From positions 32,001 through 96,000 of the IMG/VR virus record IMGVR_UViG_3300043777_000086: a DNA stretch of 64,000 bases. The stretch is one strand, 5' to 3'. A program made the translations under genes and the position numbers. Shown piece by piece: positions 3 through 46,003 of this stretch; position 1 is the stretch's first letter, and each line of letters opens with the position of its first letter. The stretch comes from a virus. The notes beneath the pieces are model-generated. The model ran no database searches and had not been told where the DNA came from. It saw nothing but the letters and a program-made list of their open reading frames with translations.

Positions 3-728
3 CGCCACCCCGCAACGATAATTGTCTGAGGAGTTGATACTAAACTGCATCGAGGCGGTGTAGTTGGTCGCCACGGATACGATTTGATCCTGACTTGCAG
101 CAGGCTGAAAGCTTGAATCGTTGGTTTGCTGATTCTGAATGGTGAACCCGGTTGCCGCCGTAAAGGTTGCTGTTCCGCTACCTCCGTTTGAAACCGAGCA
201 TGCTCCTATAATCACGTCATTGGCGTTGGTTGTGGTGATGGATCCGGGACTCATTGGAGTTCCGCCGGTACACGGAGCACAAGTGCCTCCCGCCCCGGCT
301 GAGGTATCCACGGGAGAGGAGCTTACCACGCCGGAGTACTCCATCACTAGCGCCGTCAGGAATGCTGTGGTTCCGGCCTTGCAGGTCACTGTGAATGTTC
401 CGGTTGACCCGCTCACTATACTCCACCAGAGCCCTATGCTTACATCTGTGGAGCCGGCCTGGTTGCCGGTAGCGGCAGCTACGTTGTTGTACGTATTACC
501 GGACTGATTGTCGGTTGGGGTCGTCCAGGTCTGCGTCGTGGCAGCCGAGCACCAGATTACGATTAGATTCCCAACTGTTGGGGTTGACGTGAATGAACAT
601 GCCTCGGAAGTAACGGCACTACTAGAGGAGCACACGCCTTGGGTTGTGGACCCGGATGTAGCTGGCTGAATGCGCGTAATTGTCGCCCAGGCGGGCAGGG
701 AACATAAGACCAATAGAAGAGCCTTCAT
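3..728 (-). CDS. Secreted Ser/Thr-rich beta-sandwich protein, fibre-tip-like (partial, runs off left edge)
   Basis: Not in ORF track; manual translation from ATG 728: MKALLLVLCSLPAWA|TITRIQ...PTVGNLIVIWC...TDNQSGNTY...MEYSGV; frame open to window edge; 1 nt after upstream stop. Confidence 0.8.
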   Translation of the reverse strand, partial: MKALLLVLCSLPAWATITRIQPATSGSTTQGVCSSSSAVTSEACSFTSTPTVGNLIVIWCSAATTQTWTTPTDNQSGNTYNNVAAATGNQAGSTDVSIGLWWSIVSGSTGTFTVTCKAGTTAFLTALVMEYSGVVSSSPVDTSAGAGGTCAPCTGGTPMSPGSITTTNANDVIIGACSVSNGGSGTATFTAATGFTIQNQQTNDSSFQPAASQDQIVSVATNYTASMQFSINSSDNYRCGVA

Positions 729-729
729 A

Positions 730-3700
730 TTAGTTCGCCTGGACCGCCAGGAGCCTGGGGATCGTTACCGTAACTAACTGAAGATTAGCCACCGCGGTAG
801 CCGACGAAGTCGAGGCAATCTTGATATTCATCACATTACCTCCGGAGCAATTAGTCATGCTGGTCGAGTTCAACTGAAGCGTTTGGGTGTATGGCGTGTT
901 GGCTGTGGTGCCCGTCGTCGTGGTGGTGAATGTCTGTGCTGTCTGAAAGCTAGGGTCGTCTGTGGTGGTAGAGCATCCGATCGCCACCGAGAATGCGATC
1001 ACCTGGGATCCAGTTGCTGCGTTCTGCGTGTAGTTGATGCGGACGTAGGGGTCGGTGGCGGTATCCCAATCCGAGGGAACCTCGAGCTGGGATTGGGCGC
1101 TCTGGACGCTTGCGGCGAACTGAAGATAGCCGGTCTGTAGATTGGTGCCGGTGCGGCAAAACGGGGTCGGTGCCGCGCTGGTTGGTAGCGACATTCCAGC
1201 TCCCGCCGTGGTGTTATTGCAGTTGGCCGGGACGATCTGCTTGACGTCAGGGAAGTCTATGAAGGTTGGGGATCCAGCCCCCCCGGATAGCGCTACCTGC
1301 TTGGCTGTGCCCGCAGCGCTTGAGCTTATGGCGGACGTGCTTGATCCGTATACGATCCCTCCGCTGGTTACCGAGGCCGGAATCGTTAACCCATTAATGC
1401 TCGTCTGATTCGCAAGGGCGGCCGGTAGATCAGCAGTCCCGATCGACTCATAACCCGGTGCCGCGGTCGACCCGGTGTTATTCATCCAGGCTTTATGGGC
1501 ACCGGCCGTGGCGAGCGTGGCGGTGATCGCCCCGGTCGAAGAAGAGTTCGAAATAAACGTTCCGTCCCCGCTGAATGAAGTTACCGGGGCTCCACCGATC
1601 GTCCCGGTGGCGATCTGCCCGGTGATCGAGGGCGATCCCGTTGCTGTGCTCCACGTAGCCTGGAAGTCAATCGTATGGCTCGTAGTGGTGTTAATGCTGA
1701 ATGTGGCGGTGTTAGCTAAGGACCCATCCGCTGGCGTCAGGGATGTTACTGAAGACGGATTGATCTGGAATGCACAAACAGCAATCGCCGTTCCTCCGGA
1801 TCCCGTGGTACGCGTGGTGATCTGACAGCCAGGCGTATTCCAGGATCCGTTCGTGACGGCTGTGGAAGGTAGAGTCAGCGCGCCGGTAGTGGCGATCGAA
1901 GATCCGTCGATTAATAACGTGATCGTCAGCGTTCCGATGTAAGCGCTCGGGATCGATACAACCCCTCCGAAGTTCAGGCTAAGCGGAGTATTCGTGATCA
2001 GCGTATTAGCGGGGATAGTCTGGGCTCCTCCGCCGATTAGGGAGGTGGCGGAAGTTCCTGTGTCCGTAGCTGAGGAGGTCGCATTGAATACGCTCGCTCC
2101 GGCAGATCCACCTCCGCCACCCCCGCTCGATGCGATCGTGAGTCCATTGGAGGCCGGGGTGAATGTCACGTTCGTGCCAGCTACGGGGGGAGCATTTCCG
2201 AAATAATTGGTGCCGTCCGACCAGAACGCGATCGGCTGATAGGAGATCAAGACAGGGACGCTCGATGCCCCATTGAAGTTCTTGGAATTTAGGGAAACCG
2301 TAGCTACTGAACTGCCGATGGACTCGATCGCCCCGTAGTATCCGTTGGTCGGGGATCCGTACAGGGTAACAGAGCAGGGAGAAGCGCAGTTCATTACCAC
2401 TGTCTTTCCAAGGTCCCCGGCAACTAGAGTGTAGTTTCCGGTCTGGGTATTTTCAGCCCCGCTCACCGTGCAGGTTGATCCGAGGGTGCAGGTCTGTCCG
2501 TTTACCGTGGAGGAGCTATTTGCCAGGGCTGCGTTCGGTACCGCCTCGTATGTGACGGTATTCGAGGCGGTGACCACAGGGACCGTATTTGTGGATGGCG
2601 TCGCCCCGTAGCTTACCCCGTTGACTTTAGCCACAGTGGCCGCCAGGGATCCGGCCGAGCTTATCACATCTCCGGTCAACTGAAGAGTGAACCAGGCGAA
2701 TTGACTAACGTTCGAGGTCGGCGCCGGGAACAACATGATCTGATTGGCGGCTGGAACAGCATTAGGAGTCTCAAGTAAGACCGAAGTGGTTATCGTTGTG
2801 GGGCAGGTCCACCCAAACGAGTTGCTACCTGCGGTTGCCGCAGTGCCCTGCGCGCACTGCCATGCTCCGGCTACGCCGCTGCCGGATCCTGTCGTAACTG
2901 AGGAGGTGGTGGAGATTGGCTCCGTGGTCGAGACCGTGGTTCCGTTGTCGGTTATGGAGGTGTTCTCGCAAGCCGAAGAGCCATTAGATGCCTGAACAAC
3001 CCCCGCTGATCCCGAGGGGATACACCCAGATCCAGACCCGGTGTACTGCGGGATATTCAAAGTCCCGGAGGTGAACGTGGCTGCACCTGAAGTACCCGTG
3101 GTGGTGAGGGTGAATGGTGCCGTGAAAGCCCCGTTGCCGTTCAGGAACGTGGTCGTGGTTCCTGGGAGGATCGGAAGGAATCCGTGGGCGCTAGTGGAGG
3201 CGTTGTTCGTGGTGATATTGGTCAGTGCCAATGCCGCTTCCGCTAAAGTTCCCCCTCCGGCCGAGTTCTGATGGTTATGGTTGGCATTTACGAACGAGGC
3301 GATCGTAGGCGTGGTCAGGGTTTTATTGGTAAGGGTATCGGTTGTGCCGCGACCGACAAAAGTGTCCGTCGCATCCTGAATAGTCCAGACCCGATTCGCC
3401 GTAGGAGTGCCAGTCAGCTCAATCGAATCGGTACCAAAGGTCGACGACCCATAGAGATAGATATTTCTCCACGCAGTCGCCGCGGCGCCGAGGTCGAGGG
3501 TGGTCTGCGGTATCAGTGATAGGTTAATGGAAACAGAAGCCAAGTTCGATAGGGCTGTATTAGCACCACCCCCACCACTGCCGCAATCCGATCCGGTACC
3601 GGTGATCAAACCTGCGGAATTGGCGTGTAGACATTGGATTCCGGAAGCAACATCACTGAGCGTCAACCCCGAAGCCGTGGGGTTGGTCAACGTCTTGTTG

Positions 3701-4806
3701 GTTAGTGTGTCCGTGGTAGCCCGACCCACGAATGTGTCAGAGGAATTCTGGATGGTCCAGACACGCGCAGCGGTCGGGGTCCCGGTGATTTCGATCGAGT
3801 CCGTCCCGAAGGTGGTCCCTCCGTAGAGAAATATATTAGTGAACGGAGTTGAGGCGGCGCCCAGCGCTACTCCGGCCTGCGGCACGAGCGACGTGTTGAT
3901 CGAAACGGACGCGAGGTTTGACAGTGCCGTGTTAGCTCCGCCGCTACCCGTTCCGCAGTCAGTCCCCGTGCCTGTTATGAGGCCGGCTGAGTTGGCATGC
4001 AAACACTGTATCCCAGAAGCCACATCGCTCAGCGTCAGCGCCGATACGCTCGGGGCTGTGATCGTTTTATTGGTTAGAGTTTGCGTAGCTGCGATTGCAG
4101 TCAGAGTCCCACCCCCCGTAGGGAATGTCCACGTACTCGAAGAGGGGATCGCAAAGGTGGGGTTGAAGGCGCCCGTGAAGGTTACGTTCCCGGATAGGGT
4201 CAGAGTGTCTGATCCGTTATTAACCCCCGTCCCTCCGTTGGTGCCCCCAAGGATCCCGGTTACGTCTGCGGTAAGGGACACCAGCGAGCTAGTACAGACC
4301 TGCGTGCTGCCCGCGAAGTGGCAGATGCCCACACCTGGCGCGATTGCCGTCACCACATTGGCCGTGACGATGCCACTGTCCACTGGTGTATTGGTGGCTC
4401 CGAACCCGACCAGGTGGCCGTTGGTCCCAGCAAAAGCCGTGCCGTTCAATAGACCGGCATTGATAATTCCACCGCCCGTAAAGGTCAGCGTCGTCCCCGT
4501 GCCGACCGTGTACGTGTTGCCGGTGGTGTTGGTCCCTCCGGTTAGCGTCGTCCACGCCGCGGATACCGTGCCGCCGCCCATCGTACTCCAGGTGTTTGTC
4601 GCAGAGCAGTAATAGGGTGTGGCGGCCCCCGCCGTGAAGACCACATACACCTGACCGTTACCAGGTACGCAGGTGGACGGAAGCCCAGACCCTGTGACGA
4701 TCCGGCGAGTGATAGCAGATCCTCCGCCTGGGGTGATCTGGGCCTGCAAAAGTCCGAACCCGGACAAAAGCAGGACCAGAACCTTAAAGTACGTCGCCAT
4801 CCGCAT
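730..4806 (-). CDS. Long mosaic tail-fibre-like protein with N-terminal signal peptide (1358 aa)
   Basis: MRMATYFKVLVLLLSGFGLLQA|Q; TLTNKT fibre repeats, NTQTGNYTLVAGDLGK module, G/S/T-rich; AGGAG RBS. Confidence 0.8.
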   Translation of the reverse strand: MRMATYFKVLVLLLSGFGLLQAQITPGGGSAITRRIVTGSGLPSTCVPGNGQVYVVFTAGAATPYYCSATNTWSTMGGGTVSAAWTTLTGGTNTTGNTYTVGTGTTLTFTGGGIINAGLLNGTAFAGTNGHLVGFGATNTPVDSGIVTANVVTAIAPGVGICHFAGSTQVCTSSLVSLTADVTGILGGTNGGTGVNNGSDTLTLSGNVTFTGAFNPTFAIPSSSTWTFPTGGGTLTAIAATQTLTNKTITAPSVSALTLSDVASGIQCLHANSAGLITGTGTDCGTGSGGANTALSNLASVSINTSLVPQAGVALGAASTPFTNIFLYGGTTFGTDSIEITGTPTAARVWTIQNSSDTFVGRATTDTLTNKTLTNPTASGLTLSDVASGIQCLHANSAGLITGTGSDCGSGGGGANTALSNLASVSINLSLIPQTTLDLGAAATAWRNIYLYGSSTFGTDSIELTGTPTANRVWTIQDATDTFVGRGTTDTLTNKTLTTPTIASFVNANHNHQNSAGGGTLAEAALALTNITTNNASTSAHGFLPILPGTTTTFLNGNGAFTAPFTLTTTGTSGAATFTSGTLNIPQYTGSGSGCIPSGSAGVVQASNGSSACENTSITDNGTTVSTTEPISTTSSVTTGSGSGVAGAWQCAQGTAATAGSNSFGWTCPTTITTSVLLETPNAVPAANQIMLFPAPTSNVSQFAWFTLQLTGDVISSAGSLAATVAKVNGVSYGATPSTNTVPVVTASNTVTYEAVPNAALANSSSTVNGQTCTLGSTCTVSGAENTQTGNYTLVAGDLGKTVVMNCASPCSVTLYGSPTNGYYGAIESIGSSVATVSLNSKNFNGASSVPVLISYQPIAFWSDGTNYFGNAPPVAGTNVTFTPASNGLTIASSGGGGGGSAGASVFNATSSATDTGTSATSLIGGGAQTIPANTLITNTPLSLNFGGVVSIPSAYIGTLTITLLIDGSSIATTGALTLPSTAVTNGSWNTPGCQITTRTTGSGGTAIAVCAFQINPSSVTSLTPADGSLANTATFSINTTTSHTIDFQATWSTATGSPSITGQIATGTIGGAPVTSFSGDGTFISNSSSTGAITATLATAGAHKAWMNNTGSTAAPGYESIGTADLPAALANQTSINGLTIPASVTSGGIVYGSSTSAISSSAAGTAKQVALSGGAGSPTFIDFPDVKQIVPANCNNTTAGAGMSLPTSAAPTPFCRTGTNLQTGYLQFAASVQSAQSQLEVPSDWDTATDPYVRINYTQNAATGSQVIAFSVAIGCSTTTDDPSFQTAQTFTTTTTGTTANTPYTQTLQLNSTSMTNCSGGNVMNIKIASTSSATAVANLQLVTVTIPRLLAVQAN
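3337..4080 (-). repeat. Tandem internal duplication (~372 nt, ~124 aa) in the fibre gene
   Basis: Two copies of TLTNKT...LTLSDVASGIQCLHANSAGLITGTG.DCG...ANTALSNLASVSIN...FGTDSIE.TGTPTA.RVWTIQ...DTFVGR.TTD. Confidence 0.9.
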
Positions 4807-5191
4807 GACATGAATCTCCTGCGCTCTCGATCACGATCTGAAACTGACCCGCCCAATACACGTTTGCTTTTTGAGAATCGCCTATCGCCCAAGCTTCACC
4901 GGGGTCGATCGCTCGAATTACGCCGCCCGTAATTGGGCCACCGGGGGTCTGTATGAATGTGCTGCCTTCATTGAAGGGGGCAACCCCCCAGCACACAAAA
5001 ATACGCCCGGTGTTATTTGCATTCGCCTTGATCTCCAGTTTATTGAGTTGTAGATCATCCTGGCTGTTAGGGTTGCCGAAGGCATTGGCTGGTAGATTAG
5101 AGGTGAGCCGTAGCGCATGCGTGTCTCCGATCCCGGTCGGGGCCAGAAGTCCAAAGAACACCGGCTTAGAGAGTGGTTGAAATTGTGCCAT
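4784..5191 (-). CDS. Small cytoplasmic virion protein, possible fibre-docking jelly-roll
   Basis: 135 aa, IKANANNTGRIFV motif typical of small phage beta-sandwich proteins; directly upstream of fibre; no signal peptide. Confidence 0.55.
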   Translation of the reverse strand: MAQFQPLSKPVFFGLLAPTGIGDTHALRLTSNLPANAFGNPNSQDDLQLNKLEIKANANNTGRIFVCWGVAPFNEGSTFIQTPGGPITGGVIRAIDPGEAWAIGDSQKANVYWAGQFQIVIESAGDSCHADGDVL

Positions 5192-5194: not shown

Positions 5195-5395
5195 TTAATC
5201 CCTGCGCTTTGCGCGCTTCCCTTTCCTCTTACCTGAAGATCTTCCGACAACCGCATTGGCGGCCCTAATGGCGCTACCTTCGGATGCCCCGCGCTTGAGC
5301 ATCGAATCCGCTACGTGCGACCACTGCCTTTTCTTCTTTGGGCTACTGGCTTTACGCGTGAACCTCTTGGCTGACTGTGGAGTCCATGGCATCAC
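5195..5395 (-). CDS. Small basic ChaB-like protein
   Basis: MPWT...QWSHVADSMLKRGASEGSAIRAANAVV plus K/R-rich tail; overlaps upstream stop. Confidence 0.6.
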   Translation of the reverse strand: MMPWTPQSAKRFTRKASSPKKKRQWSHVADSMLKRGASEGSAIRAANAVVGRSSGKRKGKRAKRRD

Positions 5396-7065
5396 TGCAC
5401 CCTAGCTTTCGGCGGAGTACTTGGCCTACGCGCGTACAGCAATAGGTCAGTGATCGCGGAGATGTACTTGTCGAGATCATCAACCAAGTCCGCCTTGTGG
5501 ATCGGATACTCACGCCCCTCGCTTGGCCGTTCTCCCATCTGGCTTTGAATGTGCGCCTCGCCTACCCTACGCGTAACCGATGCCTTCGGCTCGTCCTGCG
5601 CGATACTGAACGTGATCTCACCCTCATGGCCTAGAAGCGACCGCTTGATGACCTGGAGTCTCTGAACCTCCTGCACGAGCTGCTCGTTTGGGATCGAAGA
5701 GAAATCCACGATCGCACTCGCCGGTACGCCGTGTTTTTCTGCGATCTGATTCGCTTCGTTGGCGGATACCCTGGTCTGCGCTCGGGGGTCTGGCACGTAC
5801 CCGCTCGGACCTTCTTCAATCGCACCGCGCACGGGTGGCGGTCCGCCGATTGATTCCTGAATCCTGCCGGGAGTGGGGATAGTCTCCCCCGAGGCGCTGC
5901 TGCCGACAATCTGCCTGGATCGTGGCGCAGGCGTTGGGGGTTCTTCGTAGCCAGGACGTACGGTAGGCGGTCCGACTTTCTGTTCTGGCTGCCTCGCTAC
6001 TTCCCTAGGTCCCACTCTGACTAGCTCTCCGCCTGGGGGCCGCTTGGATTTAGCTTTGGAAGGCGCCGGGATCTCCTTGGGTTTTTCTCCTTCGCGTACC
6101 GGACCCACTTCCTCGCTCTCAATCCCCATCTTTTTGATCGTCTCGGACACCTGAGAGTTAAGCTGCTTAAACCGCGCCTGCGCCTCCGGGGGTAGGGATT
6201 GGGAAGACTTGTACTGGTCCATCTCGCGCAATAGATCACGGAGCTTGGAGCGCGCTTCGCGGGCGGCTGGGGGTATTCCCTCGTCTGCTTTCGAGAGCGG
6301 TCCGGATTCCTTATCGAGACCCATTGCCCGCTGCCCTGTCTTTGTGAATGGCAACGCCGCGAGAGTCTGGCTGATCGCGGAAATCACCTTAGCCGCGCCC
6401 TCTGGGGTCCTATTAGGATCCTGAGCCCATGACAGAGCCATATCAGCAGAGTCTGCCGCCTTGTACGCCGAATAGAGTCCTGCGCCTTTTTGCCCGATCC
6501 ACTTCATGAGACCGGCGATCCGCGGCGCATACTTTCCGAGCACGCCTTCGATGGGGCCGGCTACTAACGCGGTCGCTATGCCGGCAGGAGTTTGCGCGGC
6601 ATCCATCGTCTTGCCCGTCTCGCGCATCAATCCCTCAACAAACCTCCCATGGCTAATCAACGGCAGCGGCCCGTACATCGTCGATTCGACCGCCGCCTTA
6701 ACCACAGGAGGAGCTTTCTCGGTGAATCGCTTCACAGCCCCTTCGGCCGATACATCCGAGACTCCCGCTGCATTCCCGATCTGCTGGGTTACGGGAGTGA
6801 AGGCAACATCCTTGGCCTTCTGGGTCCCCGCTCCCGGTCTGACCTCGGGAGGTTTGGATTCATCAGCCAACTGGTAGCGGCTCGCAAAACTAGGCTCGGA
6901 GGTGATCGCCTTCAGGAGTTGATCCCTTGATACCCCGCCGGGATTGCTCGACTGGAGCTGGCGGAACAACTGCCGCGCGTGATTGTTCTGCGGGTCGGGA
7001 TCCTTAATCATCCCCACAAACGATTCGATCACCTGATCCGAGCCAATTTGTTGCTTATCGGCCAC
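5392..7065 (-). CDS. Putative ejection/internal virion protein (557 aa)
   Basis: Helical Ala-rich N-half, Pro-rich C-half; last gene of ejection cluster. Confidence 0.55.
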   Translation of the reverse strand: MADKQQIGSDQVIESFVGMIKDPDPQNNHARQLFRQLQSSNPGGVSRDQLLKAITSEPSFASRYQLADESKPPEVRPGAGTQKAKDVAFTPVTQQIGNAAGVSDVSAEGAVKRFTEKAPPVVKAAVESTMYGPLPLISHGRFVEGLMRETGKTMDAAQTPAGIATALVAGPIEGVLGKYAPRIAGLMKWIGQKGAGLYSAYKAADSADMALSWAQDPNRTPEGAAKVISAISQTLAALPFTKTGQRAMGLDKESGPLSKADEGIPPAAREARSKLRDLLREMDQYKSSQSLPPEAQARFKQLNSQVSETIKKMGIESEEVGPVREGEKPKEIPAPSKAKSKRPPGGELVRVGPREVARQPEQKVGPPTVRPGYEEPPTPAPRSRQIVGSSASGETIPTPGRIQESIGGPPPVRGAIEEGPSGYVPDPRAQTRVSANEANQIAEKHGVPASAIVDFSSIPNEQLVQEVQRLQVIKRSLLGHEGEITFSIAQDEPKASVTRRVGEAHIQSQMGERPSEGREYPIHKADLVDDLDKYISAITDLLLYARRPSTPPKARVQ

Positions 7066-10228: not shown

Positions 10229-10229
10229 T

Positions 10230-12588: not shown

Positions 12589-12592
12589 AATT

Positions 12593-35558: not shown

Positions 35559-36208
35559 GGCCTCACCTCCCACTGATTTGCCGGTGGAGTAATCCACGCT
35601 TCCCAGTCCTGCTTAGGCACAACAGGTAACGTTGCAGGCTGATTCACAAGCGGATCTATCCGTCGCATTGGAATTGACGCAGGCGCTTTCCCGAACGCCG
35701 CGAGTGCCGTGTAGTCCGCGCACTGTCCAGCCCCGAGAGCAATGATGGCCGGTGGGGGATTGTCGATCGCGTACTTGGGAATGTTTTTTGAGAACAGCGC
35801 TTGCGCGGCAGGGATCAGCAAGCCGCCTGCCGTGATGATCGGCCCCAGTTCGCTGGGGCTCTTGTGTAGCGTGTTTTCGATCGTCACACCTAGGCCGATC
35901 GCCGCGCCGCCGTATCCGAGTACCTGAGTCGCGCGATACGCAAAGGAATGATCGACTCGCGCGTTTAAGATTGCCGTTGACTGCGAGAATGTGTAGAAAT
36001 TCACCTCAGGAAAGTTCGATTCCACCAAGGCCCACGGGATCGGTATGGGAGTTGGGCCGATGGCGCAGACCCTCAGATTCCAAGCGTAGGCTGACAGGCC
36101 CTTGCCGAGCAGCGGAGCGGTACCCGCTGAACTCATGAGGTTCATGCTTACGGTGATCTGCGCCGTGAGCGGCAGGCAGAGGATTCCAAGATGGAGCGCT
36201 AGTTTCAT
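35555..36208 (-). CDS. Secreted hypothetical protein
   Basis: MKLALHLGILCLPLTA|Q; internal hydrophobic hairpin. Confidence 0.7.
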   Translation of the reverse strand: MKLALHLGILCLPLTAQITVSMNLMSSAGTAPLLGKGLSAYAWNLRVCAIGPTPIPIPWALVESNFPEVNFYTFSQSTAILNARVDHSFAYRATQVLGYGGAAIGLGVTIENTLHKSPSELGPIITAGGLLIPAAQALFSKNIPKYAIDNPPPAIIALGAGQCADYTALAAFGKAPASIPMRRIDPLVNQPATLPVVPKQDWEAWITPPANQWEVRP

Positions 36209-36720
36209 TTGGGCTTAGGCAGGCATCGCGCTAGTTCCAAGCGCCGCGCGTCCGCTTGTCTCCGTTCCTCTTCGCGGCGTGCCGCCTCCGTCTCCGCTTG
36301 ATTGTGCCCCGCTGCTTTCTCTCTTGAGACCCGCTCTATGTCGTCGTACTCGCGGCGATACGTGTCCAGCCAGTGATTGTAAGCAGCCTGAACCTTGGCG
36401 TCCTTTATTGCTGCCGTGAAGTCCTCCATTTTATGCAGACGCTCACGGGCGTAACCGAGCTGCGCAGCATTTGGTGTGTAGCTCCCATCAAAGTAAGTCA
36501 GGTGAGGGAACAGCACGTCCAGCGCGGCGTTGCTGAGATCCTCATCCGAGAACGGCTTATTGTCGCAGAGGATCGGCTCATCAGGCTTGGGTGTCATCGT
36601 CGCGACAACCTTGCTAGCAACCGAAGTCGTACCGCTAGACAAAGCGTGTGGGCCTTCCTGGTGCGTGGGCTTGCATCCGCAGAGCACCAGCGAGAGCGCG
36701 AGGATCAGAAGGCGGGTCAC
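36205..36720 (-). CDS. Lipoprotein
   Basis: MTRLLILALSLVLCG|C lipobox; helical C-terminus; GGAGG RBS. Confidence 0.75.
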   Translation of the reverse strand: MTRLLILALSLVLCGCKPTHQEGPHALSSGTTSVASKVVATMTPKPDEPILCDNKPFSDEDLSNAALDVLFPHLTYFDGSYTPNAAQLGYARERLHKMEDFTAAIKDAKVQAAYNHWLDTYRREYDDIERVSREKAAGHNQAETEAARREEERRQADARRLELARCLPKPK

Positions 36721-37424
36721 TTTCCCTCCGGTAGAGGTCCTAACCAAAAATACGACGGCGCTCCGAACAGCCCGGTCCCGTAATCAAGGAACGTGTAGGC
36801 TGGATTTCCAGGGCACGGCGTTCCATTCGGCAGCACCACGCCCTTCTCTACCGCGTACACACCCTGCACAGGTCCAGCGATCCCCATCTCGGTGGTGGTC
36901 GCTTCAAAGGCCCCGATGAGCTGCGGGGTCACTGGGGTCGGGGGAGCAACGGGCGCGAATGGCTTATAGCTCGAGTCCGCTACGCTCGATATGAAGGCGC
37001 CTACCGGAGGGTTCAAGGGAGGATAGGTGAGCATCCCTGGAACCGCGTCGCCTGGGGGCGCGTACGGATTTGGAGTCCCCGCGGGGAGTGTCCATTCGTA
37101 TCCGTCCTGAATGCGAAAGAATTCTACCGCGGTCGGCGTCTGATCTCCGATCCCCACAATTTGTAGATCAACCGAGAACCCTTTAGCGGCTAGCGAAAGG
37201 GCGGCCTCCTCGCGTAACGTACCGGCAGGCATATCGAAGACCGCCCGAACTTTTGGCGATAGCCACTCCCTGTATGCCTTGTCGATATTCTGAACCGGAT
37301 ACGAAACTCCGAGGTTGTTCCCGTTCGAGTCTCGGCCGGCCCATTGCCCTTGAGCGTTCCAGGGCGATATGACGACGTTCGGCAGCGTGAGGGTGCCGGT
37401 GGTGATGGTACCTGTGGGTGACAT
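36717..37424 (-). CDS. Pro-rich hypothetical protein
   Basis: Start ATG 37424 after AGGAG; first gene of accessory operon. Confidence 0.65.
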   Translation of the reverse strand: MSPTGTITTGTLTLPNVVISPWNAQGQWAGRDSNGNNLGVSYPVQNIDKAYREWLSPKVRAVFDMPAGTLREEAALSLAAKGFSVDLQIVGIGDQTPTAVEFFRIQDGYEWTLPAGTPNPYAPPGDAVPGMLTYPPLNPPVGAFISSVADSSYKPFAPVAPPTPVTPQLIGAFEATTTEMGIAGPVQGVYAVEKGVVLPNGTPCPGNPAYTFLDYGTGLFGAPSYFWLGPLPEGK

Positions 37425-37968: not shown

Positions 37969-40900
37969 TTAGTAGATCGAGCGAATCGGCTGTGAGATTA
38001 CGGTCGACCCGTTCTTCAAATCCTCGATGATCCACGCGATGAATCCGGGGATCTTTGGCACGGAGATCGTACATCCGCTTGAGCACGTCACGTAGGATGT
38101 GGTGTTGTAAGTGGATTCCGTGGTCGGTCCGAACAAATACGGCGTCGCGCCCGTCCCGTCCGTAGCGCAGTTGTCCGTACGGTTCGTGCAGTAGAAATTA
38201 GATGGACTACTTCCGGTCCACGTTGTCCCGGCCGGCGCGAACTCAGAGTAGGCGAATCGGATCCTGCGCGTATCCCCCGATGCCCCGGCGCCGTACTTAA
38301 TCTGGATCTGCTGGAAGTCCGGAGAGGTTGGGTAGTTCATTTGCGGAGTCGGTGGGAGCTTATAGGCCCAGATGTCGATCCGGCCGCCACCGCTGCACCA
38401 GTCGCACACGAACATCGCCCATTGTCCGGTTGGTTCGGGAATAAACGTCGAGAATGAATACTGACGCCCCGGCCCCATCAAACCCATGCCGATCGATCGA
38501 AGTGTCGAACCGGTATAGTCCGAAAAATCGATGCGCTGCTGGATCATCATGGCCCCAAATGGAACGAAGCTATATACGCACGGGTAGTTATCGTCGTACC
38601 AGTTGGAGACGCACGCAGTAGAGAGCCTAGCCGAAGGGACCGTCATATAGGAGTCGCCTGGGCTGGATCCGGCGACACACTCCCCAGAAAGGTAGGCTCG
38701 ACAACCCTGCCAAGGGACGCTGCTGCTCAACACTGAAGATGGCCCGCTCACATCCTTCAGTAAGTTCGGACCTGCCCAGAACACCGGAGGGCTCACTTTG
38801 TAATTCGCCGCGGTCGAAGACCCGCACGCGCTTCCGTTTGCGACCTTATAGATTATTCCACTCACTAACGTCACTGTTATTGGGCACGTTCCGGTTGCTG
38901 TCTCGTTAGATAGCCCATCGGATGGATTCCAGTGATTGAAGTCAGTCATCCAGGTTCTGTCGTAAATCGGAGCCGTATACTGATGCACAGACGGATAACC
39001 CTGAAGAGACCCACCTATAGACACCCCAGAACCAACCCCATGAAACACTGGCTTGCCAATCGTCGTTGAGTACGGCTGACCAACCTGAGTTGTGAATGGA
39101 ATATTATACCGCGCCTGTAGGCTTTGAACGTAATTCGTTGCTCCCGGCGTGGGTCCAGGGCTAAGATCGAAGTGCCCACTAAAGGCCATCGGATCGTTAA
39201 GAAATGTGAGTGTTGATTTTGTTACGTCAAACCAATTACCTACACCCGGAAGACAGCACACAGCGCCGGGCGGAGTTGCATAACCCGTCCATCCGGTACT
39301 CGAATTCTTAGTCGAAGCATTGAATGAACCCCAGATCGGAAACTGCGCGCGCGCCCATGTCACCACGAGACACTGCACTCCGCAACCTACATCCGTTACC
39401 GGAGCTACCGTGAGTGCCTGTAGGGTCTCGTTAACAGCGTGCAGAGATAAGGCGTCACCAGGTGCCAAACCCTGAATCTGCGACCACGCTGAATTCTGCG
39501 GCGTCGGCCACTTCGCCAATTCCGCAGTGCTCGGACTATGGGACGCCACATCCGGCATGTGGACCGTCACACACAGATTCCCTGTAATGCCGAATGAATT
39601 AGTCGGGCACGTATCTAGTGGGGACGTCGTGGTCATCGACGTGTCCGTCGTGAACACACCGCCTTTGAGCATGCTGTAGGGCGTTGACTGCCACGGCCCG
39701 ACACCGGTTACGCTTGGGGTCGCCACGAAGGAGTATGCTCCGCCGAGAAGATTACAGATAACGGAATAATATCCCCCAGAGGCATCGGCGGAATGATTAG
39801 CGCACCAACGCTGCGGAAAATGAGAATAGATGTTATCCGTTGCTGTAATAAGGCCTGTGGAGACATTGAACACATTGATTAGCGTGATTGTCTCGCCACC
39901 GGTAGGCGGACCGTTGCTGACCACCGCGAAGCCATTCGTGAACCGGTCAACGATAGCTGGGTGCGAGGACGTCCCCACATCTGCAAATACCGAGCTATCC
40001 CAGTATGGGTTGGTCGCGTGGATCTGGTTATTTATGTCCAATCCAGCGCTTGCCGGGGTCAGGTCGGTCCACGTGAGGTTTTGATCGGACCATTGTGGCC
40101 CCTGAAACCAATTCTGCGTTGTGTCCTGCCCAGGAGAACAGCCGCCACCACCCGTACAATTATCGGATGATGGGTAAAGGCTGTGGCCGTACGCTTTGAA
40201 CTTACCGGCGGTGGGGTTGTACACAACCTTGAAAATAGAGGGCGTTAGAGCGCTCCCTGTCTTGGCCGGAAAATCGAATGTGTTCGGATCGAACTGATCC
40301 CATGAGTCGATGAGCGGGACGAACCCACTTACCTGATTTGCGGGCGGATCCGAGCCATTAAAGAAATATAGCGGTGTAAGGTGTCGGACCTCACCAGTGC
40401 CCGGAATGAACAGTGCTAGGTTTTGAGCCCCTCCGCCAGACCTATCAAAGGTACATAGCTCGCCGGTTTGCGGTGGAACAAGCGACGTAGATCCGTCCGC
40501 CATCGTGGAAATTGTCTGAGAATTTACCGTGCAGTAGGCCGTATTTCCCTCGGCCGGCGCGATGAACACGTCGCTAAAGGCCCAATCGAAACTCACGCTG
40601 ATGTTCGCGGTCCCGGCTGCGGATCCGCTCGCCACCCAGAGCAAAAGTCCGGGCATACTGGTACCCGTCGCACTCGAGACACCGGGCGTCTCTACGACGG
40701 TCATGCTTTGACTTGTTGCTGGCGCCGCAGCGAGAGTGCAGAGGTGGTTTGTGCAAGAGCTTGACGGAATCTGATACTTCATTCCCGCGGGCCACTGGAC
40801 GTTGAAGTTTAACCCCGTGGTTGTAGAGCCATTCGTGACAGCGCTACCCGAAATCGTTATGGTAGAAGCTGTGGGTGTTAGCTGCCACGCCGTTGGAAAC

Positions 40901-41838
40901 GTCGTCAGGTTCCAATCGCAGAAATAACAGGCTTGGCCGATAACCGTTCCGGGCCAGTTCGCGTTCGAGGGGAAGCTACCTGCCGGATTTCCAAGGGTGG
41001 TCGGAAGCGTTACCAAAGCGCTTGCCGGGAAGGTGCAGCTTCCGATCGCCGGGACCTCCGTGAGGCATCCCTCGATCACCATGCCGGAAACCGAACCGTT
41101 GCCGAAGATATGGACGCGTATGTCGTCGAGCGTCGGACCCACCGCCCACCCGCCGATCTGACTTCCGGTGAAGCTGATGATCTGCGGAAAGGGGATGAAA
41201 ATCGGCGCTCCGTTACCCGTGCCGCTGTAGGTGTAAGAAGCAAGGGTCGATGCCGATCCACTAATAACGTTTGCTGGGTTCGTCCAGGCACTCGCCACGT
41301 CGAGCCAGTTCGTAGCGAGTTTATTGTGCTGGCTTTGTCCCCACCAGCCGGGCTGGGTAATCGGTATCAACGGAGCGCCCGTCATCGGATCGGCAACCGG
41401 AACGCGCGCCGACGGATTGACGATCGGCCAGTCGTAGTTGAAGGTCTTAGCCGAATTAAACGGCGGACTCTGTGTGTAGGCGCTTGGCTCGAGCGTCTTT
41501 GTCGTGAACGTGATGCTTCCGGTGTCAGCGCCGCTATTACATGTGACCGTCGCCGTGGTGCGGGAGTTGTAGAACAGAGTCGCCTGGGAGGAACCGGTGC
41601 CGAAGATCGCGTGCGTTGTTCCGTCGCCGGGAAGGACGGTCGTCAAATTCGACGCATCGATCGTAACTGGTCCATAGAAACTAGCACCGAACACATTTGC
41701 GCTTATAGAATATGTGCATGGTCCGACCGTGGGTGTATAAATGACTTCCGCCTGGCGCGCGGAAACGGAGCCCAACTTGAGTGGGATTGTGGCGGAAAAT
41801 ACCGGGAGCGCCAACAAAGGAATGAGAAGACACCGCAT
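37969..41838 (-). CDS. Large secreted Cys-rich beta protein (1289 aa), candidate receptor-binding/spike
   Basis: MRCLLIPLLALPVFSA signal peptide; many Cys pairs; last gene of fibre operon. Confidence 0.7.
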   Translation of the reverse strand: MRCLLIPLLALPVFSATIPLKLGSVSARQAEVIYTPTVGPCTYSISANVFGASFYGPVTIDASNLTTVLPGDGTTHAIFGTGSSQATLFYNSRTTATVTCNSGADTGSITFTTKTLEPSAYTQSPPFNSAKTFNYDWPIVNPSARVPVADPMTGAPLIPITQPGWWGQSQHNKLATNWLDVASAWTNPANVISGSASTLASYTYSGTGNGAPIFIPFPQIISFTGSQIGGWAVGPTLDDIRVHIFGNGSVSGMVIEGCLTEVPAIGSCTFPASALVTLPTTLGNPAGSFPSNANWPGTVIGQACYFCDWNLTTFPTAWQLTPTASTITISGSAVTNGSTTTGLNFNVQWPAGMKYQIPSSSCTNHLCTLAAAPATSQSMTVVETPGVSSATGTSMPGLLLWVASGSAAGTANISVSFDWAFSDVFIAPAEGNTAYCTVNSQTISTMADGSTSLVPPQTGELCTFDRSGGGAQNLALFIPGTGEVRHLTPLYFFNGSDPPANQVSGFVPLIDSWDQFDPNTFDFPAKTGSALTPSIFKVVYNPTAGKFKAYGHSLYPSSDNCTGGGGCSPGQDTTQNWFQGPQWSDQNLTWTDLTPASAGLDINNQIHATNPYWDSSVFADVGTSSHPAIVDRFTNGFAVVSNGPPTGGETITLINVFNVSTGLITATDNIYSHFPQRWCANHSADASGGYYSVICNLLGGAYSFVATPSVTGVGPWQSTPYSMLKGGVFTTDTSMTTTSPLDTCPTNSFGITGNLCVTVHMPDVASHSPSTAELAKWPTPQNSAWSQIQGLAPGDALSLHAVNETLQALTVAPVTDVGCGVQCLVVTWARAQFPIWGSFNASTKNSSTGWTGYATPPGAVCCLPGVGNWFDVTKSTLTFLNDPMAFSGHFDLSPGPTPGATNYVQSLQARYNIPFTTQVGQPYSTTIGKPVFHGVGSGVSIGGSLQGYPSVHQYTAPIYDRTWMTDFNHWNPSDGLSNETATGTCPITVTLVSGIIYKVANGSACGSSTAANYKVSPPVFWAGPNLLKDVSGPSSVLSSSVPWQGCRAYLSGECVAGSSPGDSYMTVPSARLSTACVSNWYDDNYPCVYSFVPFGAMMIQQRIDFSDYTGSTLRSIGMGLMGPGRQYSFSTFIPEPTGQWAMFVCDWCSGGGRIDIWAYKLPPTPQMNYPTSPDFQQIQIKYGAGASGDTRRIRFAYSEFAPAGTTWTGSSPSNFYCTNRTDNCATDGTGATPYLFGPTTESTYNTTSYVTCSSGCTISVPKIPGFIAWIIEDLKNGSTVISQPIRSIY

Positions 41839-42711
41839 CTACTGGACCCCGGAAATTACCTGATAAAGCATCGTGACTACGATAGATGCTCCCGCTCCGC
41901 CGGTGCAGTTGGCGGTTGAACTGCCAATATACAATCCCTTATTGACGACCGTGGCTGTAGCGGCTGTGCCATTGGTAGCAAGAGGGAAGGCGCTCTGCGA
42001 GGCGGTAAATTCAATCACGGTATTCTCAGAATAAGAAGTTGCAAAGACCGGAGACATGTTATACGCACTATCAGCCATTGAGGAACTATAACCGAGTCCG
42101 AAATTATGCCCGCAAGTAAACAACGCTCCGGCGTACACGAAGTTAATAAATATATCAACTGGCTCGATAACCGTACCGGTGCCTAACGCGGCGAGTATCG
42201 GCTGGGGGGTTGTGAAAAGATTGGTGACTTGGCTAGCGCTTAGAGTTATGGTCACCGACTGGACTGCCGAGGCCCCGGAGCTCGCTGCCACACCAAGGTT
42301 CAGCACCGTCCCTGTCGCGTTCGCTGCCGCTGTGGTCTGTGCTTGCCCGTACCATCCGCTTGTCGGCAGAGTTGTTCCGACATCCGTACAGCGTCCTGTG
42401 GTCACTGTCAATTGAACATAGTGGCCCTTGGTATACCCTGTCGCATCAGCCTGACATGGGCCTTCACTTCCAGGTCCAGCCATAGCGACGCTACCCGAGG
42501 TTCCCGCGCCGCTGACTGGGAGATAAAGCTGCGCGGCTGTCGCGGCAGTTGTGGCCGTGATCGCATTCCCGGAGGAATTGATTAGCGCCAGATTCCCCGT
42601 CGCGGTTCCCGTTGAAGTATCGTTCGTGGCGGTGATCTGGCGCATCACCCCTGGGGTCTGGGCATGCACCAACGCCGCGATTAGACAGATGGGAATGATA
42701 AGCCTTTTCAT
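41839..42711 (-). CDS. Secreted protein with cement-like N-domain and decoration-protein-like C-domain
   Basis: MKRLIIPICLIAALVHA|Q; C-domain aligns by eye with 50264..50878. Confidence 0.75.
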   Translation of the reverse strand: MKRLIIPICLIAALVHAQTPGVMRQITATNDTSTGTATGNLALINSSGNAITATTAATAAQLYLPVSGAGTSGSVAMAGPGSEGPCQADATGYTKGHYVQLTVTTGRCTDVGTTLPTSGWYGQAQTTAAANATGTVLNLGVAASSGASAVQSVTITLSASQVTNLFTTPQPILAALGTGTVIEPVDIFINFVYAGALFTCGHNFGLGYSSSMADSAYNMSPVFATSYSENTVIEFTASQSAFPLATNGTAATATVVNKGLYIGSSTANCTGGAGASIVVTMLYQVISGVQ

Positions 42712-42720: not shown

Positions 42721-43473
42721 TTAGTTGACGATCGCACCATAGGTCAATGCACTTATAGTTGCAGTCGCTCCGGTGTAATTGCACGCACTAACGGTCACTG
42801 TATTCGCGGCCGATACGAACATCGCTGGCACCCAACTGGCCGGGAAGGCCGAGGGTATTTCTGGGCTGATCGCATTTCCGGTCTGCGCGCCAGTTAAGGT
42901 GAATGTCCCCGTCCCGCATCCGCCGTCATTAATTGAAGTGAATGTAATTGATCCACTACCCTGGAACGTCCCCACCTGGATCAGTGCTCCGTATGTAGCC
43001 ACCGCCGGAGTAAGTGGACCGCCGGAAGAATTAAAGATTCGTACGTCTATAGTATTGGCCGCAGAAACGAATACCGTTGGCGTCAATCCGCTCGCTAGCA
43101 CCGGAAGAATGGGGCTCACCGCCGAACCGGTCGCCGTTCCAGTCAGAGTGAAGGTCTGATCAGCGCTCGTCCCATCGGGTATCGACGGGAATGTAAGCGA
43201 GGCCGTCCCGATCAAGCCGCCACCTCCGCCACTAGCCTGCGCCGTCCACGTATTCGTAGCTGTGCATTTATAGAGAATCTGGCTCGTTGAATTGTAGTAC
43301 CAGTCGAGGTTCGCCGTACACGTGGCTGGTGCTGTCGCCTGAACGGTGAATGGGCGCGTAGTGCCAGCCGTCGACCAGTCCATCACTGCGGAGGGGGCCG
43401 CGGTTTGACTGCCAGTGGGGGTCTGCGCCACCAATGAGAACGCGAGCAATGATAACGTAATAATAATTTTCAT
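42721..43473 (-). CDS. Secreted short fibre protein with two tandem tip domains
   Basis: MKIIITLSLLAFSLVA|Q; PATC...YKC.ATNTW; two copies of SxTF.SI.DG...TFTLTG..TG.A.SP...FVSAANT. Confidence 0.75.
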   Translation of the reverse strand: MKIIITLSLLAFSLVAQTPTGSQTAAPSAVMDWSTAGTTRPFTVQATAPATCTANLDWYYNSTSQILYKCTATNTWTAQASGGGGGLIGTASLTFPSIPDGTSADQTFTLTGTATGSAVSPILPVLASGLTPTVFVSAANTIDVRIFNSSGGPLTPAVATYGALIQVGTFQGSGSITFTSINDGGCGTGTFTLTGAQTGNAISPEIPSAFPASWVPAMFVSAANTVTVSACNYTGATATISALTYGAIVN

Positions 43474-43474
43474 A

Positions 43475-46003
43475 TCAGTTCGTCACGTTATAGCTCAGGC
43501 AGGCGGGGTTCGATGAAGGCGAGCTTGCCACTGTGATAGTGAAGGATGTCCCCGGAGTCCTCGCTGAGATCCAAGAGTTGACGTAAGTTGTGTTGCACGT
43601 CACGCTGAGTTTAGTGCCTAGCGAAGAATCAAACGTTAGTTGGATCTGGCTATTCGCGGTCACGGCGGTAGTTGCCACAACGACAGTGGTGGCTGATACC
43701 GCTACAGTAACCGACCCCGCCGCTGCCGAACCGCATGTCCCGCCAGCGCTAGAGCAATTCGTACTTGTCGATATTGTCGGGAAGATCCCAGTGCTTGAGA
43801 TGGTGTTCACGCCCTTGGAATCTGGGGTTATGGAGATCCCCGCCCCTGGTAGTAGCGCGTCGGTAGAGAATGCCGCGAGATTATTATTTGTCGTGCTCCA
43901 CTGACTCGCCGTGCCCCCGGCCGTGCCGCTCGCGAATGGCTTGTATCCTATCCCTGGCCATGCCGTGGCTGTGGTGGATCCGAGCGTGAGGTTTGTTAGA
44001 GTCAGACCCCCCGATACGATCACGTTTGAGACATCCAAACGGAAGCGCTGGTTCTCGAGATCGTAGGTAATCCACCAGTTTGCGGCGGATGGAACCCAGG
44101 AACCGGAACCAACAGCTTTGAGCGTCAGCGCTCCGAGATTAGACGGGATACCCCCCGTCTCGAAGTTGGTCCCACCGGACGGCGATGTACAGATGAGCGT
44201 GTCGTTCGTTGTCGAGGTCGTCGAGATCAAACAACTATAATCCGTCAACTGATTTGCGGCCGCCGCTCCAGACCCACCTGCTCCGCAATTACCGTTTAGT
44301 AAAGGAGCGTTCGTCGTGGTGCTACATCCTGTGCCGGTCCAGAGGGCTGCGATGTCGCTGAAGGTTGCTATCGTAAATGGTCCGGTGCCGTTGCCTTTGA
44401 GGGGTCCTGTGAGCGTCCCCGCTCCGGATCCTCCGCCAGGAACGGCCAGAATCCCGGTGACTTGAAACTTTTCAATTTGCCCGCTCGAATTAGAGGGGAC
44501 GACGGTCTGCCCGTTATTTGCCACGCCGGTCTCGAAGTTGATGCCGGTCTGGTCTGAATTGGAAACGCTATTGGTTTGTACGGCGGATACGATTCCAGGC
44601 GTTCCGGCAGTGCCAGGCGCACCGCCTCCAGCCGCGTAACATTTTCCCGTGAAGGCCGCATCGAACAGACATGTCGGGCTGGTCGTATTCTGCCCGGTGA
44701 CGCGCTTAGGGTTTACGGAGTTGCCAGAGGAATCCTGAGCCGTGACAGCGGCTCCGATCACGGCGCCTGTTATCGTGCAGGACGTCGTCGCCACCAACGT
44801 ACATGACGCTGGAGTTCCGGATCCTCCGCCTGTCCCGCTGCCACACTGGGTCTGCCAATTAGTTGCGTCCGAGGTAATATCACAGCCCTGTCCGGTCGTC
44901 AGCGTCAAAGATGAGGACCCACCGATCGTACCTGAGGCTGGAGTCAGTGTCGCCGTTCCCGCCCCGATATCCTTAGCTGAAAACTTGAATCCAGCCGGGA
45001 AGGATCCGCCGGCCGCCGGGACGGTTACCGCAACAGCCGAGGCGTTATTGAACGTGACGAGCTTCTGGCAATCCGAAGCCAGGATCGTATAGGATGTACC
45101 GGTTTGCGGATTTACTAATTCCTGACCGGATATGGTCCCCGTTACAGTAATGGTTCCGCCGCTTAACCCGCAAGCAGCTACGATCGACGTGACTGTTCCT
45201 CCGGGAGCCCCATTCAGATTGGCGTACGGGTATCCGGTCGGGATATCCCCGATCAAAAGCGGCCCTACCGTTGGTGCGGCGGCAGCGGATCCCGACCCCT
45301 GCTCGATTACAAATTCACGTGTGGCGGTAGTGTTCCCGGCCAAGCGAGTCGGCGTCCCGCTCGCTCCTCCGTAGAGGAGATCACCTAGCGTTGTTAGCGG
45401 ATTATTTAGAATCGAGAACGTTCCCAGCCCAAGATTGGTCCTTGCTGTGGCGGTGCTAGTCAGATCGCTCAGGTTATTTGCCGTCTGAAGGAAAGATGCA
45501 GCGGGCTGCACCGCTGCGCTGCCGAGTCCAAGGTTGGTGCGCGCCGTCGCCGCGCTTGTAAGATCCGAAAGGTTATTAGCCCTTATGAGAAAGATTCCAC
45601 CGCCGCCACCTCCACCCCCGCCGATCCATAGGTAGCGCGTGCCGGCGTAGGAAATAGAAACTGATCCTGTGATTGCGAAGCTTATAAAGTCGTGGTATCC
45701 GGTTCCGACGCCGGCGCACGATGCGGAGGTGTTGGTAACTAAAGATCCGGTATCCGAAAATGACGTCCACGGGCCTGTATCCACACCGTCCTGGTATTGG
45801 ATTTGGGCAGACCACGTACCGGTTCCTGTTGCACAGAATGTGTGGGTTGTTGAGGCGTAAAGCGCCTGCGATCTATTATCTATGATTGTGGCAGAGCTAG
45901 TGATTCCTGCGACCACATTCGATCGGATGACCTCCGGTGCCTGTTGAGCGGAAATCCGAACTCGGACAAATAGGAGCGCTAGGATCAATAGAATTTTTTT
46001 CAT
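43475..46003 (-). CDS. Tail-fibre protein with signal peptide (842 aa)
   Basis: MKKILLILALLFVRVRISA|Q; two ANNLSDLTS.ATARTNLGLG fibre repeats; LTTLGDLLY; NPQTGTSYT module; ATGA-coupled to adaptor. Confidence 0.85.
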   Translation of the reverse strand: MKKILLILALLFVRVRISAQQAPEVIRSNVVAGITSSATIIDNRSQALYASTTHTFCATGTGTWSAQIQYQDGVDTGPWTSFSDTGSLVTNTSASCAGVGTGYHDFISFAITGSVSISYAGTRYLWIGGGGGGGGGIFLIRANNLSDLTSAATARTNLGLGSAAVQPAASFLQTANNLSDLTSTATARTNLGLGTFSILNNPLTTLGDLLYGGASGTPTRLAGNTTATREFVIEQGSGSAAAAPTVGPLLIGDIPTGYPYANLNGAPGGTVTSIVAACGLSGGTITVTGTISGQELVNPQTGTSYTILASDCQKLVTFNNASAVAVTVPAAGGSFPAGFKFSAKDIGAGTATLTPASGTIGGSSSLTLTTGQGCDITSDATNWQTQCGSGTGGGSGTPASCTLVATTSCTITGAVIGAAVTAQDSSGNSVNPKRVTGQNTTSPTCLFDAAFTGKCYAAGGGAPGTAGTPGIVSAVQTNSVSNSDQTGINFETGVANNGQTVVPSNSSGQIEKFQVTGILAVPGGGSGAGTLTGPLKGNGTGPFTIATFSDIAALWTGTGCSTTTNAPLLNGNCGAGGSGAAAANQLTDYSCLISTTSTTNDTLICTSPSGGTNFETGGIPSNLGALTLKAVGSGSWVPSAANWWITYDLENQRFRLDVSNVIVSGGLTLTNLTLGSTTATAWPGIGYKPFASGTAGGTASQWSTTNNNLAAFSTDALLPGAGISITPDSKGVNTISSTGIFPTISTSTNCSSAGGTCGSAAAGSVTVAVSATTVVVATTAVTANSQIQLTFDSSLGTKLSVTCNTTYVNSWISARTPGTSFTITVASSPSSNPACLSYNVTN

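Follow-up and report, generated by a model that had tools for sequence, protein, structure and literature searches.

Predicted signal peptides on the fibre-like proteins of a probable soil podovirus suggest that virion assembly may be split across the inner membrane

The stretch of viral DNA studied here (the window, 64,000 nucleotides) comprises bases 32001–96000 of the 106,152-bp IMG/VR record IMGVR_UViG_3300043777_000086, a genome with direct terminal repeats that is rated 100% complete. The late region, of podovirus-like type, occupies the minus strand of the window and contains eight open reading frames (ORFs) which an earlier note on this DNA had described as fibre- or spike-like genes that all begin with a type I signal peptide. 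In order to define the signals, we called them by an explicit rule and by eye rather than with a trained predictor; the rule for type I signals asked for a positive n-region, an uncharged hydrophobic core of about 7–15 residues, and small residues at positions −3 and −1. All eight ORFs are present on the minus strand at the coordinates given below, and each encodes a positive n-region, an uncharged core of 8–14 residues and a small-x-small site.

The predicted tail fibre of 842 amino acids (aa) encoded at 43475–46003 (phrog_158, phrog_2282) consists of a signal at residues 1–19 with a cut at RISA/QQAP (a slash marks the predicted cut throughout), a conserved domain of ∼105 aa modelled as a jelly-roll (the N-domain, residues ∼20–125), a Gly9 linker, two NLSDL..ARTNLGLG repeats, and a Cys-rich, variable C-terminus with a weak match to K1-lyase_C. 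The shaft repeats match the short tail fibre gp92 (PDB 9zd7; E 1.5e-18), a solved virion component, as well as annotated tail fibres in 234 phage records, including those of Pseudomonas phages. Next to it lie genes for a predicted exported protein of 250 aa at 42721–43473 (cut SLVA/QTPT; a two-Cys N-terminal knot of the form ..TC..YKC..NTW, two repeat domains and 4 mature Cys), whose start is one base past the upstream stop, and for one of 290 aa at 41839–42711 (cut LVHA/QTPG), the C-terminal 137 aa of which are paralogous (33% identity) to a signal-less 204-aa protein discussed below. The 1289-aa fibre- or spike-like protein at 37969–41838 (cut VFSA/TIPL) carries 32 mature Cys and has no match in Pfam or PHROGs; in the relative L011, a signal-bearing homologue of 1279 aa comes after the N-domain fibre. 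PDB sequence searches returned nothing for this protein, for the 1358-aa protein described next or for a signal-less 1556-aa protein considered below.

The predicted exported fibre of 1358 aa at 730–4806 (cut LLQA/QITP) also has the two-Cys knot, and its ATG is preceded at 9 nt by AGGAG. TLTNKT occurs in it three times with a spacing of 124 aa. Close relatives of this protein have signals while distant ones are classical signal-less fibres. The public record of this gene (P0168, 1283 aa) omits the signal because its start is placed 75 aa after the signal-bearing ATG, indicating that automated gene calling can hide the pattern. The remaining three of the eight are a 716-aa protein with a Big_2 Ig-like domain at 30545–32695 (cut AALA/QTIQ), paralogous (41% identity) to a predicted exported 655-aa protein just beyond the window; a fibre-like protein of 461 aa at 16032–17417 (cut CAHA/QISL; 4 mature Cys), in which GLVGIGTTNP is found once; and a 259-aa protein (cut PAWA/TITR; 8 mature Cys), the 5′ part of whose gene lies at 1–728 (listed as 3–728) and which extends past the window start. 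Thus, both the signals and the fibre hallmarks (NLSDL and ARTNLGLG, two copies each in 43475–46003, TLTNKT and GLVGIGTTNP) reported in the earlier note are present, and its description of the exported proteins as fibre-like is borne out by the homology to 9zd7. For most of these proteins, Pfam and PHROGs returned nothing.

Three further signal-bearing ORFs lie inside the window, again on the minus strand: a 141-aa protein at 33383–33808 (cut LASA/QS; 2 Cys), a 217-aa protein at 35555–36208 (cut PLTA/QI), and a predicted lipoprotein of 180 aa at 36205–36747 (lipobox LVLCG/C; no Pfam family). In genome coordinates, those reaching beyond the window are 19521–20309, 29173–31140, 31137–31952 and the 5′ part of 31949–32728. 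In the complete genome, 14 of ∼136 ORFs bear signals (the eight listed, five further type I and one with a lipobox), amounting to ∼7,100 aa or ∼20% of coding capacity. Glutamine (Gln) directly follows the predicted cut in six of the eight listed ORFs and in nine of the 13 type I signals genome-wide. The signals are short (15–23 residues), without the S/T-R-R-x-F-L-K motif or long n-region of Tat signals; only the product of 30545–32695 starts MRRF, with the rest of the motif missing. Several of the long starts are 0–1 nt past the upstream stop or overlap it as ATGA, and others are preceded by AGGAG-like sites; this coupling and these ribosome-binding sites make the long, signal-bearing starts credible. 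Signals are found only on peripheral parts, and the adaptor, the nozzle-like protein, the capsid and the ejection proteins have none. No PEP-CTERM, T9SS or similar C-terminal or outer-membrane sorting tag was seen by eye on the exported proteins. Judged on these sequence features, the proteins very probably cross the inner membrane via Sec and are cut by signal peptidase I after the small-x-small site, usually exposing Gln. Tail fibres with signal peptides were not described in the literature we searched; the nearest account is that of Q-rule signal proteins in Porphyromonas phages (Matrishin et al. 2023, PMC10367356).

To determine how widely the signal is retained, we searched for relatives of the 842-aa fibre. 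A word-indexed search with its residues 1–140 yielded 22 proteins of 538–1439 aa, mostly on ∼100-kb contigs, whose C-termini are mutually unrelated and in some cases include beta-helix or pectate-lyase domains; 21 of the 22 begin with a signal ending AQ or GQ. We also performed an exhaustive phmmer search using the mature domain alone as query, so that the signal could not bias the family. Clustered at 50% identity, this family numbers at least 150 clusters, and in all cases the domain starts at residue ∼17–80. The signal rule is satisfied by 133 of the 145 members with an intact N-terminus, and in 130 the core is followed by [AGSC]Q. Each of the 12 that fail was inspected: four have a clear signal with one charged residue, six begin within the signal immediately before AQ, one has a mis-start upstream and one is unclear. 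We relied on this anchored count; a cruder second count gave 112/141. Signal sequences drift across the family while the signal properties and the cut site stay, a hallmark of selection on function.

An AlphaFold2 (AF2) model of the N-domain, built from a 42-sequence alignment, is a confident jelly-roll (pLDDT 87). Its best fold matches are the C-domain of XepA and YomS (Z 9.7, root-mean-square deviation 2.3–2.5 Å over 91–95 residues; Foldseek E 2.9e-3; PDB 6i56 and 6i5o), from PBSX and SPbeta respectively, and the atlas structure row for the fold is likewise PF27453 XepA. Weaker matches were to a trimeric capsid cement protein (Z 8.2), Ena pilins (∼8), and the heads of BclA, TNF and C1q (∼7.4), and all fold hits in BFVD were small, unnamed jelly-rolls of phages. 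The domain had no Pfam hit at E 0.01, although it is uncertain whether the set searched includes PF27453, and no PDB hit with a profile. With an identity of 11–14% and no Pfam hit, homology to XepA is unproven. XepA is an exported phage late protein, but differs in being a 279-aa pentameric dumbbell without a fibre, encoded in the lysis cassette of a Gram-positive defective prophage. The modelled fold does not decide the role of the domain, fitting alike a fibre base that oligomerises, a module decorating the virion or one that is exported without being part of it. One contig, L130 (1678–4704), was considered as a bacterial setting for the N-domain and rejected: the fragment there is fused in frame to the C-terminus of an MrpA-like antiporter beside an insertion-sequence integrase, and is probably a chimera or a rearrangement mediated by that element.

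The genes around the 842-aa fibre were next compared across loci. The fibre gene overlaps its upstream neighbour by the four bases 46000–46003, as the earlier note had reported; the partner, however, is not the adaptor gene but a gene for a 268-aa protein (46000–46806, minus), signal-less and of no known family, and the adaptor-like gene is one further up, joined to the 268-aa gene by another 4-nt overlap. That gene (46803–47453, minus) encodes a signal-less 216-aa protein resembling the SU10 head-to-tail adaptor (PF24175, E 4.3e-5, at 24.5 bits against a curated cut-off of 27) and matching gp30 of phage Tunturi_1, where it is the neighbour of gp31. Among IMG/VR and metagenome loci, seven phages have the 268-aa gene, and in six of these the fibre gene follows it directly. 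On gene position alone, it would be the only consistent signal-less partner of the fibre. Its AF2 model is poor (pLDDT 52); by hhalign, the 268-aa protein is unrelated to the adaptor and to a 391-aa structural protein, and the adaptor is unrelated to the product of the gene upstream of the fibre in L012.

The closest relative, a 35.5-kb IMG/VR contig (G001) with a capsid protein 91% identical, retains the order adaptor (65%), 268-aa gene (70%) and fibre. Its fibre has an N-domain 60% identical, a different valid signal and an unrelated C-terminus. The order in L124 is adaptor, a 658-aa signal-bearing protein, a 268-like gene, fibre and a 1799-aa homologue of the 1556-aa protein, and in L010 it is adaptor, a 646-aa signal-bearing protein and fibre. 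The arrangement of adaptor, 268-aa gene and fibre persists at identities of ∼35% for the adaptor and 25–30% for the 268-aa protein, and additional large signal-bearing ORFs flank the fibre in every locus compared. These conserved orders indicate that the fibre gene is embedded in a core tail module. The earlier note had proposed a survey of related phages for the same pattern, and the pattern does recur in these relatives and in the cultured Tunturi_1.

Two signal-less proteins of the window could contribute to host recognition in their own right. The 1556-aa protein (18030–22700, minus; 15 Cys) has as its sole phage matches gp31 of Tunturi_1 and Tunturi_2, annotated ‘virion structural protein’. 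Because gp31 adjoins the adaptor-like gp30, we read the 1556-aa protein as a candidate nozzle or tail hub, a reading drawn from gene position only. The 204-aa protein (50264–50878, minus; phrog_21471, phrog_23059) has a tail-fibre C-terminal tip motif and shares paralogy with the product of 41839–42711. The statement that no long cytoplasmic fibre is seen extends from the window to the whole complete genome, apart from these two signal-less exceptions. G001 (L007) carries two adjacent paralogues of the 204-aa protein, at 11438–12118 and 12129–12758, one signal-less and one with a hydrophobic N-terminus (MKNTTKIFAVLGVLLTVGVLAAF..). The same fibre-tip domain thus exists with and without an export or anchor signal. 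A knot of ∼35 aa with two conserved Cys (..TC..G..Y....Y(Y/K)C..(T/S)NTW) follows the signal in 730–4806, in 42721–43473 and in the relatives P0172, P0175 and P0176, and resembles the tip motif of the 204-aa protein.

The small cytoplasmic docking proteins that had been proposed found no support. There is no counterpart of 4784–5191 beside the homologous fibre in the closest relative, 17425–18033 has no detectable relatives or family, 50888–51403 is similarly unsupported, and 50264–50878 is itself fibre-tip-like. Pfam and PHROGs had nothing for the proposed docking proteins.

We also examined cysteine content. In the 22-sequence alignment of the N-domain, Cys57 and Cys96 occur together in 16 sequences, are both missing from six and never occur singly (Fisher p 1.3e-5, not corrected for phylogeny). 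The number of Cys in the mature protein is even in 20 of the 22 homologues (p 6e-5) and in 13 of the 14 signal-bearing proteins of the phage (p 9e-4); its signal-less proteins of at least 100 aa divide into 55 with even and 37 with odd counts. Six signal-less proteins of the virion region have no Cys at all: three large ones at 5392–11975, the 391-aa protein, the 171-aa protein at 50888–51403 and a 307-aa protein at 52411–53334. The co-varying pair and the even counts support folding in an oxidising compartment, and it is likely, as far as sequence can tell, that the exported proteins fold outside the cytoplasm with disulfide bonds. Export with oxidative folding, as first suggested for these fibres, is thus backed by the conserved signals, the conserved Gln at the cut site, the co-varying Cys pair, the even counts and the scarcity of Cys in signal-less virion proteins.

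A similar design is seen in cultured phages. Tunturi_1 and Tunturi_2 are podoviruses of Tunturiibacter (Acidobacteriota) with lytic growth and no integrase; the paper that describes them is silent on signal peptides and on virion proteomics (Demina et al. 2025, PMC11924767). On the starts annotated by the depositors, Tunturi_1 gp12, gp13, gp16 and gp17 have AQ-ending signals, and the start of gp14 (‘tail spike’), ..VLANA/TAY, resembles a signal peptide. The four large signal-bearing proteins of Tunturi_1 contain 10–32 Cys, while its signal-less structural proteins are Cys-poor. Unlike the 106-kb phage, Tunturi_1 and Tunturi_2 have a 63-kb genome and no member of the N-domain family.

No tyrosine or serine recombinase was detected in the complete 106-kb genome, nor was a related prophage copy found among the 185,579 species genomes searched; taken together, these results make it most likely that the phage is virulent. 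It is probably a podovirus of soil infecting Terriglobia (Acidobacteriota). The best lead to the host comes from a solo TnpB outside the window (genome 20399–21571, L001 8399–9571), which shares 67% identity with a copy in a Terriglobia metagenome-assembled genome (MAG), the runner-up being at 47%. This MAG encodes a glutaminyl cyclase (Glu_cyclase_2, E 1e-90), and of the 47 signals that the rule called in 400 kb sampled from it, ∼10 end in [AGS]Q; its standing as host is only inferred. A published analysis of the Q-rule did not cover Acidobacteria.

What, then, might a virulent phage do with exported fibres? We propose that the entire set of its fibre, spike and accessory host-recognition proteins is produced as precursors for Sec and signal peptidase I. 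These would fold and trimerise outside the cytoplasm with disulfides, their N-terminal Gln possibly being cyclised by the host, while the DNA-retaining core (capsid, portal, adaptor, nozzle-like protein and ejection proteins) would be built in the cytoplasm without signals. The two would join only once the holin breaches the inner membrane, with attachment by the jelly-roll N-domain of the first fibre and perhaps also by the 268-aa protein. The likely benefit would be disulfide-stabilised, exopeptidase-resistant fibres that last long in acidic soil. That the exported proteins are the phage's own host-recognition apparatus, docking on the cytoplasmic core after the holin opens the inner membrane, is a tentative proposal. 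We put forward just as cautiously the broader idea that a large clade of soil podoviruses, some of them cultured on Acidobacteriota, splits virion assembly across the inner membrane, with an exported apparatus that is disulfide-bonded and capped by pyroglutamate. We favour a place in the virion because of the position and coupling of the fibre gene in the tail module, the combination of conserved N-domains with swapped C-termini, the lack of a long signal-less fibre, and the restriction of signals to peripheral parts. In other phages peripheral parts attach last, as T4 fibres do.

Several observations weigh against this proposal. We know of no tailed phage that assembles virion parts from the periplasm, and the topological problem is accordingly real. 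XepA, to which the N-domain is closest in fold, is a late protein that is exported yet missing from mature PBSX particles. The signal-less 1556-aa nozzle-like and 204-aa fibre-tip proteins could be the true receptor binders. In distant relatives, the N-domain is 51% identical and the adaptor 34%; the N-domain, being the more conserved, is not obviously co-diverging with the adaptor. Finally, Tunturi_3, which infects the same host strain as its namesakes, has ordinary signal-less fibres.

Known systems share parts of this design. Classical podovirus fibres and tailspikes (T7 gp17, P22 gp9, those of multi-spike phages, and gp92 of PDB 9zd7) have the same conserved N-module with swapped C-modules and the same position in the tail module near the adaptor. 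However, they are signal-less, fold in the cytoplasm and are Cys-poor, whereas in the 106-kb phage the long fibres all combine a Sec signal with paired Cys, and the jelly-roll N-module of the 842-aa fibre has no sequence relation to known particle-binding domains. In the MAT fibres of Bdellovibrio bacteriovorus, a signal peptide is followed by a conserved beta-rich N-domain of ∼130 aa, for which the authors found no PDB homologue, and then by a trimeric fibre of phage-like, mosaic build whose tips vary (Caulton et al. 2024, PMC10769870). The family of the 842-aa fibre shares this architecture of signal, conserved N-domain and mosaic fibre; the MAT fibres are cellular genes displayed on the predator surface, while the exported fibres here are late-operon genes of a virulent phage. 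Phages of Porphyromonas gingivalis encode Q-rule signal proteins in which the cut exposes an N-terminal Gln, read as adaptation to host Sec (Matrishin et al. 2023, PMC10367356). These are five proteins of unknown function from temperate phages, interpreted as envelope modifiers, with no tail parts named. Host export is also used by fOg44 Lys44, SAR endolysins, spanins, lambda Lom and Bor, and T5 Llp, but these are lysis or exclusion factors and not a whole fibre repertoire. Among bacterial proteins, the exported Pantoea enzyme WceF combines a tailspike fold with a P22-like head domain and a Tat signal.

The same export and disulfide evidence would also fit if the proteins were not virion parts at all but late envelope-acting or free proteins that cut or mask exopolysaccharide, lipopolysaccharide or receptors so that progeny escape trapping or superinfection, in which case the receptor binder of the particle would be the signal-less nozzle-like protein, the 204-aa fibre-tip protein, or both. 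XepA, WceF and the MAT fibres are precedents for such a fate, the beta-helix and pectate-lyase domains of some family members suit it, and Acidobacteria are known producers of exopolysaccharide. Yet the fibre gene lies, translationally coupled, between the adaptor and nozzle-like genes; ∼20% of a virulent genome would be serving non-virion proteins; the small non-enzymatic exported partners (141–290 aa) and long shaft repeats would be odd for free enzymes; and the C-termini lack an outer-membrane sorting tag. We consider this explanation, the main alternative, a serious possibility, if short of probable. The tail-module position could instead be reconciled with real signals if one protein had two fates, a cytoplasmic pool, with or without the signal, building the virion and an exported pool acting as free depolymerase, adhesin or receptor blocker. 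Some phages do make soluble and virion-bound forms of one depolymerase, but the co-varying Cys pairs and even counts point to a fold formed in an oxidising compartment, and no internal alternative start is evident after the signal in the 842-aa gene, so that we regard two fates as unlikely.

Still less likely is that the proteins are not exported, their hydrophobic N-termini being pro-peptides, tethers to the inner face of the membrane during assembly, or artefacts of taking the longest ORF. The cores of 8–14 residues are too short to span a membrane, small-x-small plus Q is conserved in 130 of 133 family members, and the ribosome-binding sites and coupling at the long starts, the cysteine evidence and the presence of the same design in Tunturi_1 as deposited all speak for genuine signals. 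This must be set against the fact that the signals were called by rule and not by a trained predictor, that the public call places the start of the 1358-aa protein 75 aa further along, and that signal-like N-termini of capsid proteins in the Porphyromonas phages were read as protease substrates (PMC10367356). The alternative offered by the earlier note, that the proteins are surface adhesins of lysogenic conversion, we judge highly improbable: the complete genome, with its direct terminal repeats, lacks tyrosine and serine recombinases, no prophage copy was detected in the species genomes searched, the genes are large, numerous and translationally coupled in late operons, and Tunturi_1 and Tunturi_2 are lytic and integrase-free. 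It has in its favour that Porphyromonas prophages carry Q-rule signal proteins (PMC10367356). The exported morons Lom and Bor of lambda also sit among tail genes.

The pattern extends from all the fibres and spikes of one complete virulent phage to a family numbering at least 150 protein clusters and to a cultured phage of Acidobacteria. Textbook assembly of tailed phages is wholly cytoplasmic. If the exported proteins are virion fibres, they would represent a new assembly pathway, undescribed for any tailed phage; such fibres would need periplasmic expression to fold, host Sec and Dsb function would be among the determinants of phage yield, and the pattern would be missed wherever gene callers trim the signal. 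If they are not virion parts, phages would be secreting an unusually large arsenal of fibre-like proteins acting on envelope or matrix, with relevance to soil biofilm and carbon turnover. Since Tunturi_1, Tunturi_2 and their host are in culture, the question of virion or secreted protein can be tested either way.

Other genes of the late region were assigned as follows, all on the minus strand. The major capsid protein (51413–52396; phrog_9953, E 2.7e-21) is 28% identical to that of Myxococcus phage Mx8 and has no signal and 2 Cys. The portal protein (54395–56260; phrog_1216) also has 2 Cys and is 76% identical to that of G001. The terminase large subunit is encoded at 57406–59643 (phrog_5989, E 2.6e-15). 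An HNH-AP2 homing-endonuclease-like gene at 48102–48968 lies between the gene for the 391-aa structural protein and the adaptor gene; it is not at that site in G001, which has a different insert.

Within the minus-strand late region, a plus-strand island at 25178–27279 encodes a glycosyltransferase-sulfotransferase fusion (Sulfotransfer_4, E 1.7e-36) and an APS kinase (E 3e-56). A weakly PAPS-reductase-like gene is found near this island, at 34857–35597 (minus). The island might modify the exported fibres or host polysaccharide. A Lipase_3 or esterase-like protein and a GNAT acetyltransferase (28493–29236 and 32692–33336, both minus) are located among the exported late genes, and an acetyltransferase is also present in the tail region of Tunturi_1. 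Lastly, two otherwise dissimilar predicted exported proteins of 655 and 271 aa, at genome 29173–31952, share the C-terminal tag GGGS(V/T)ISG(K/S)AT(V/I)SG..V(Q/K).

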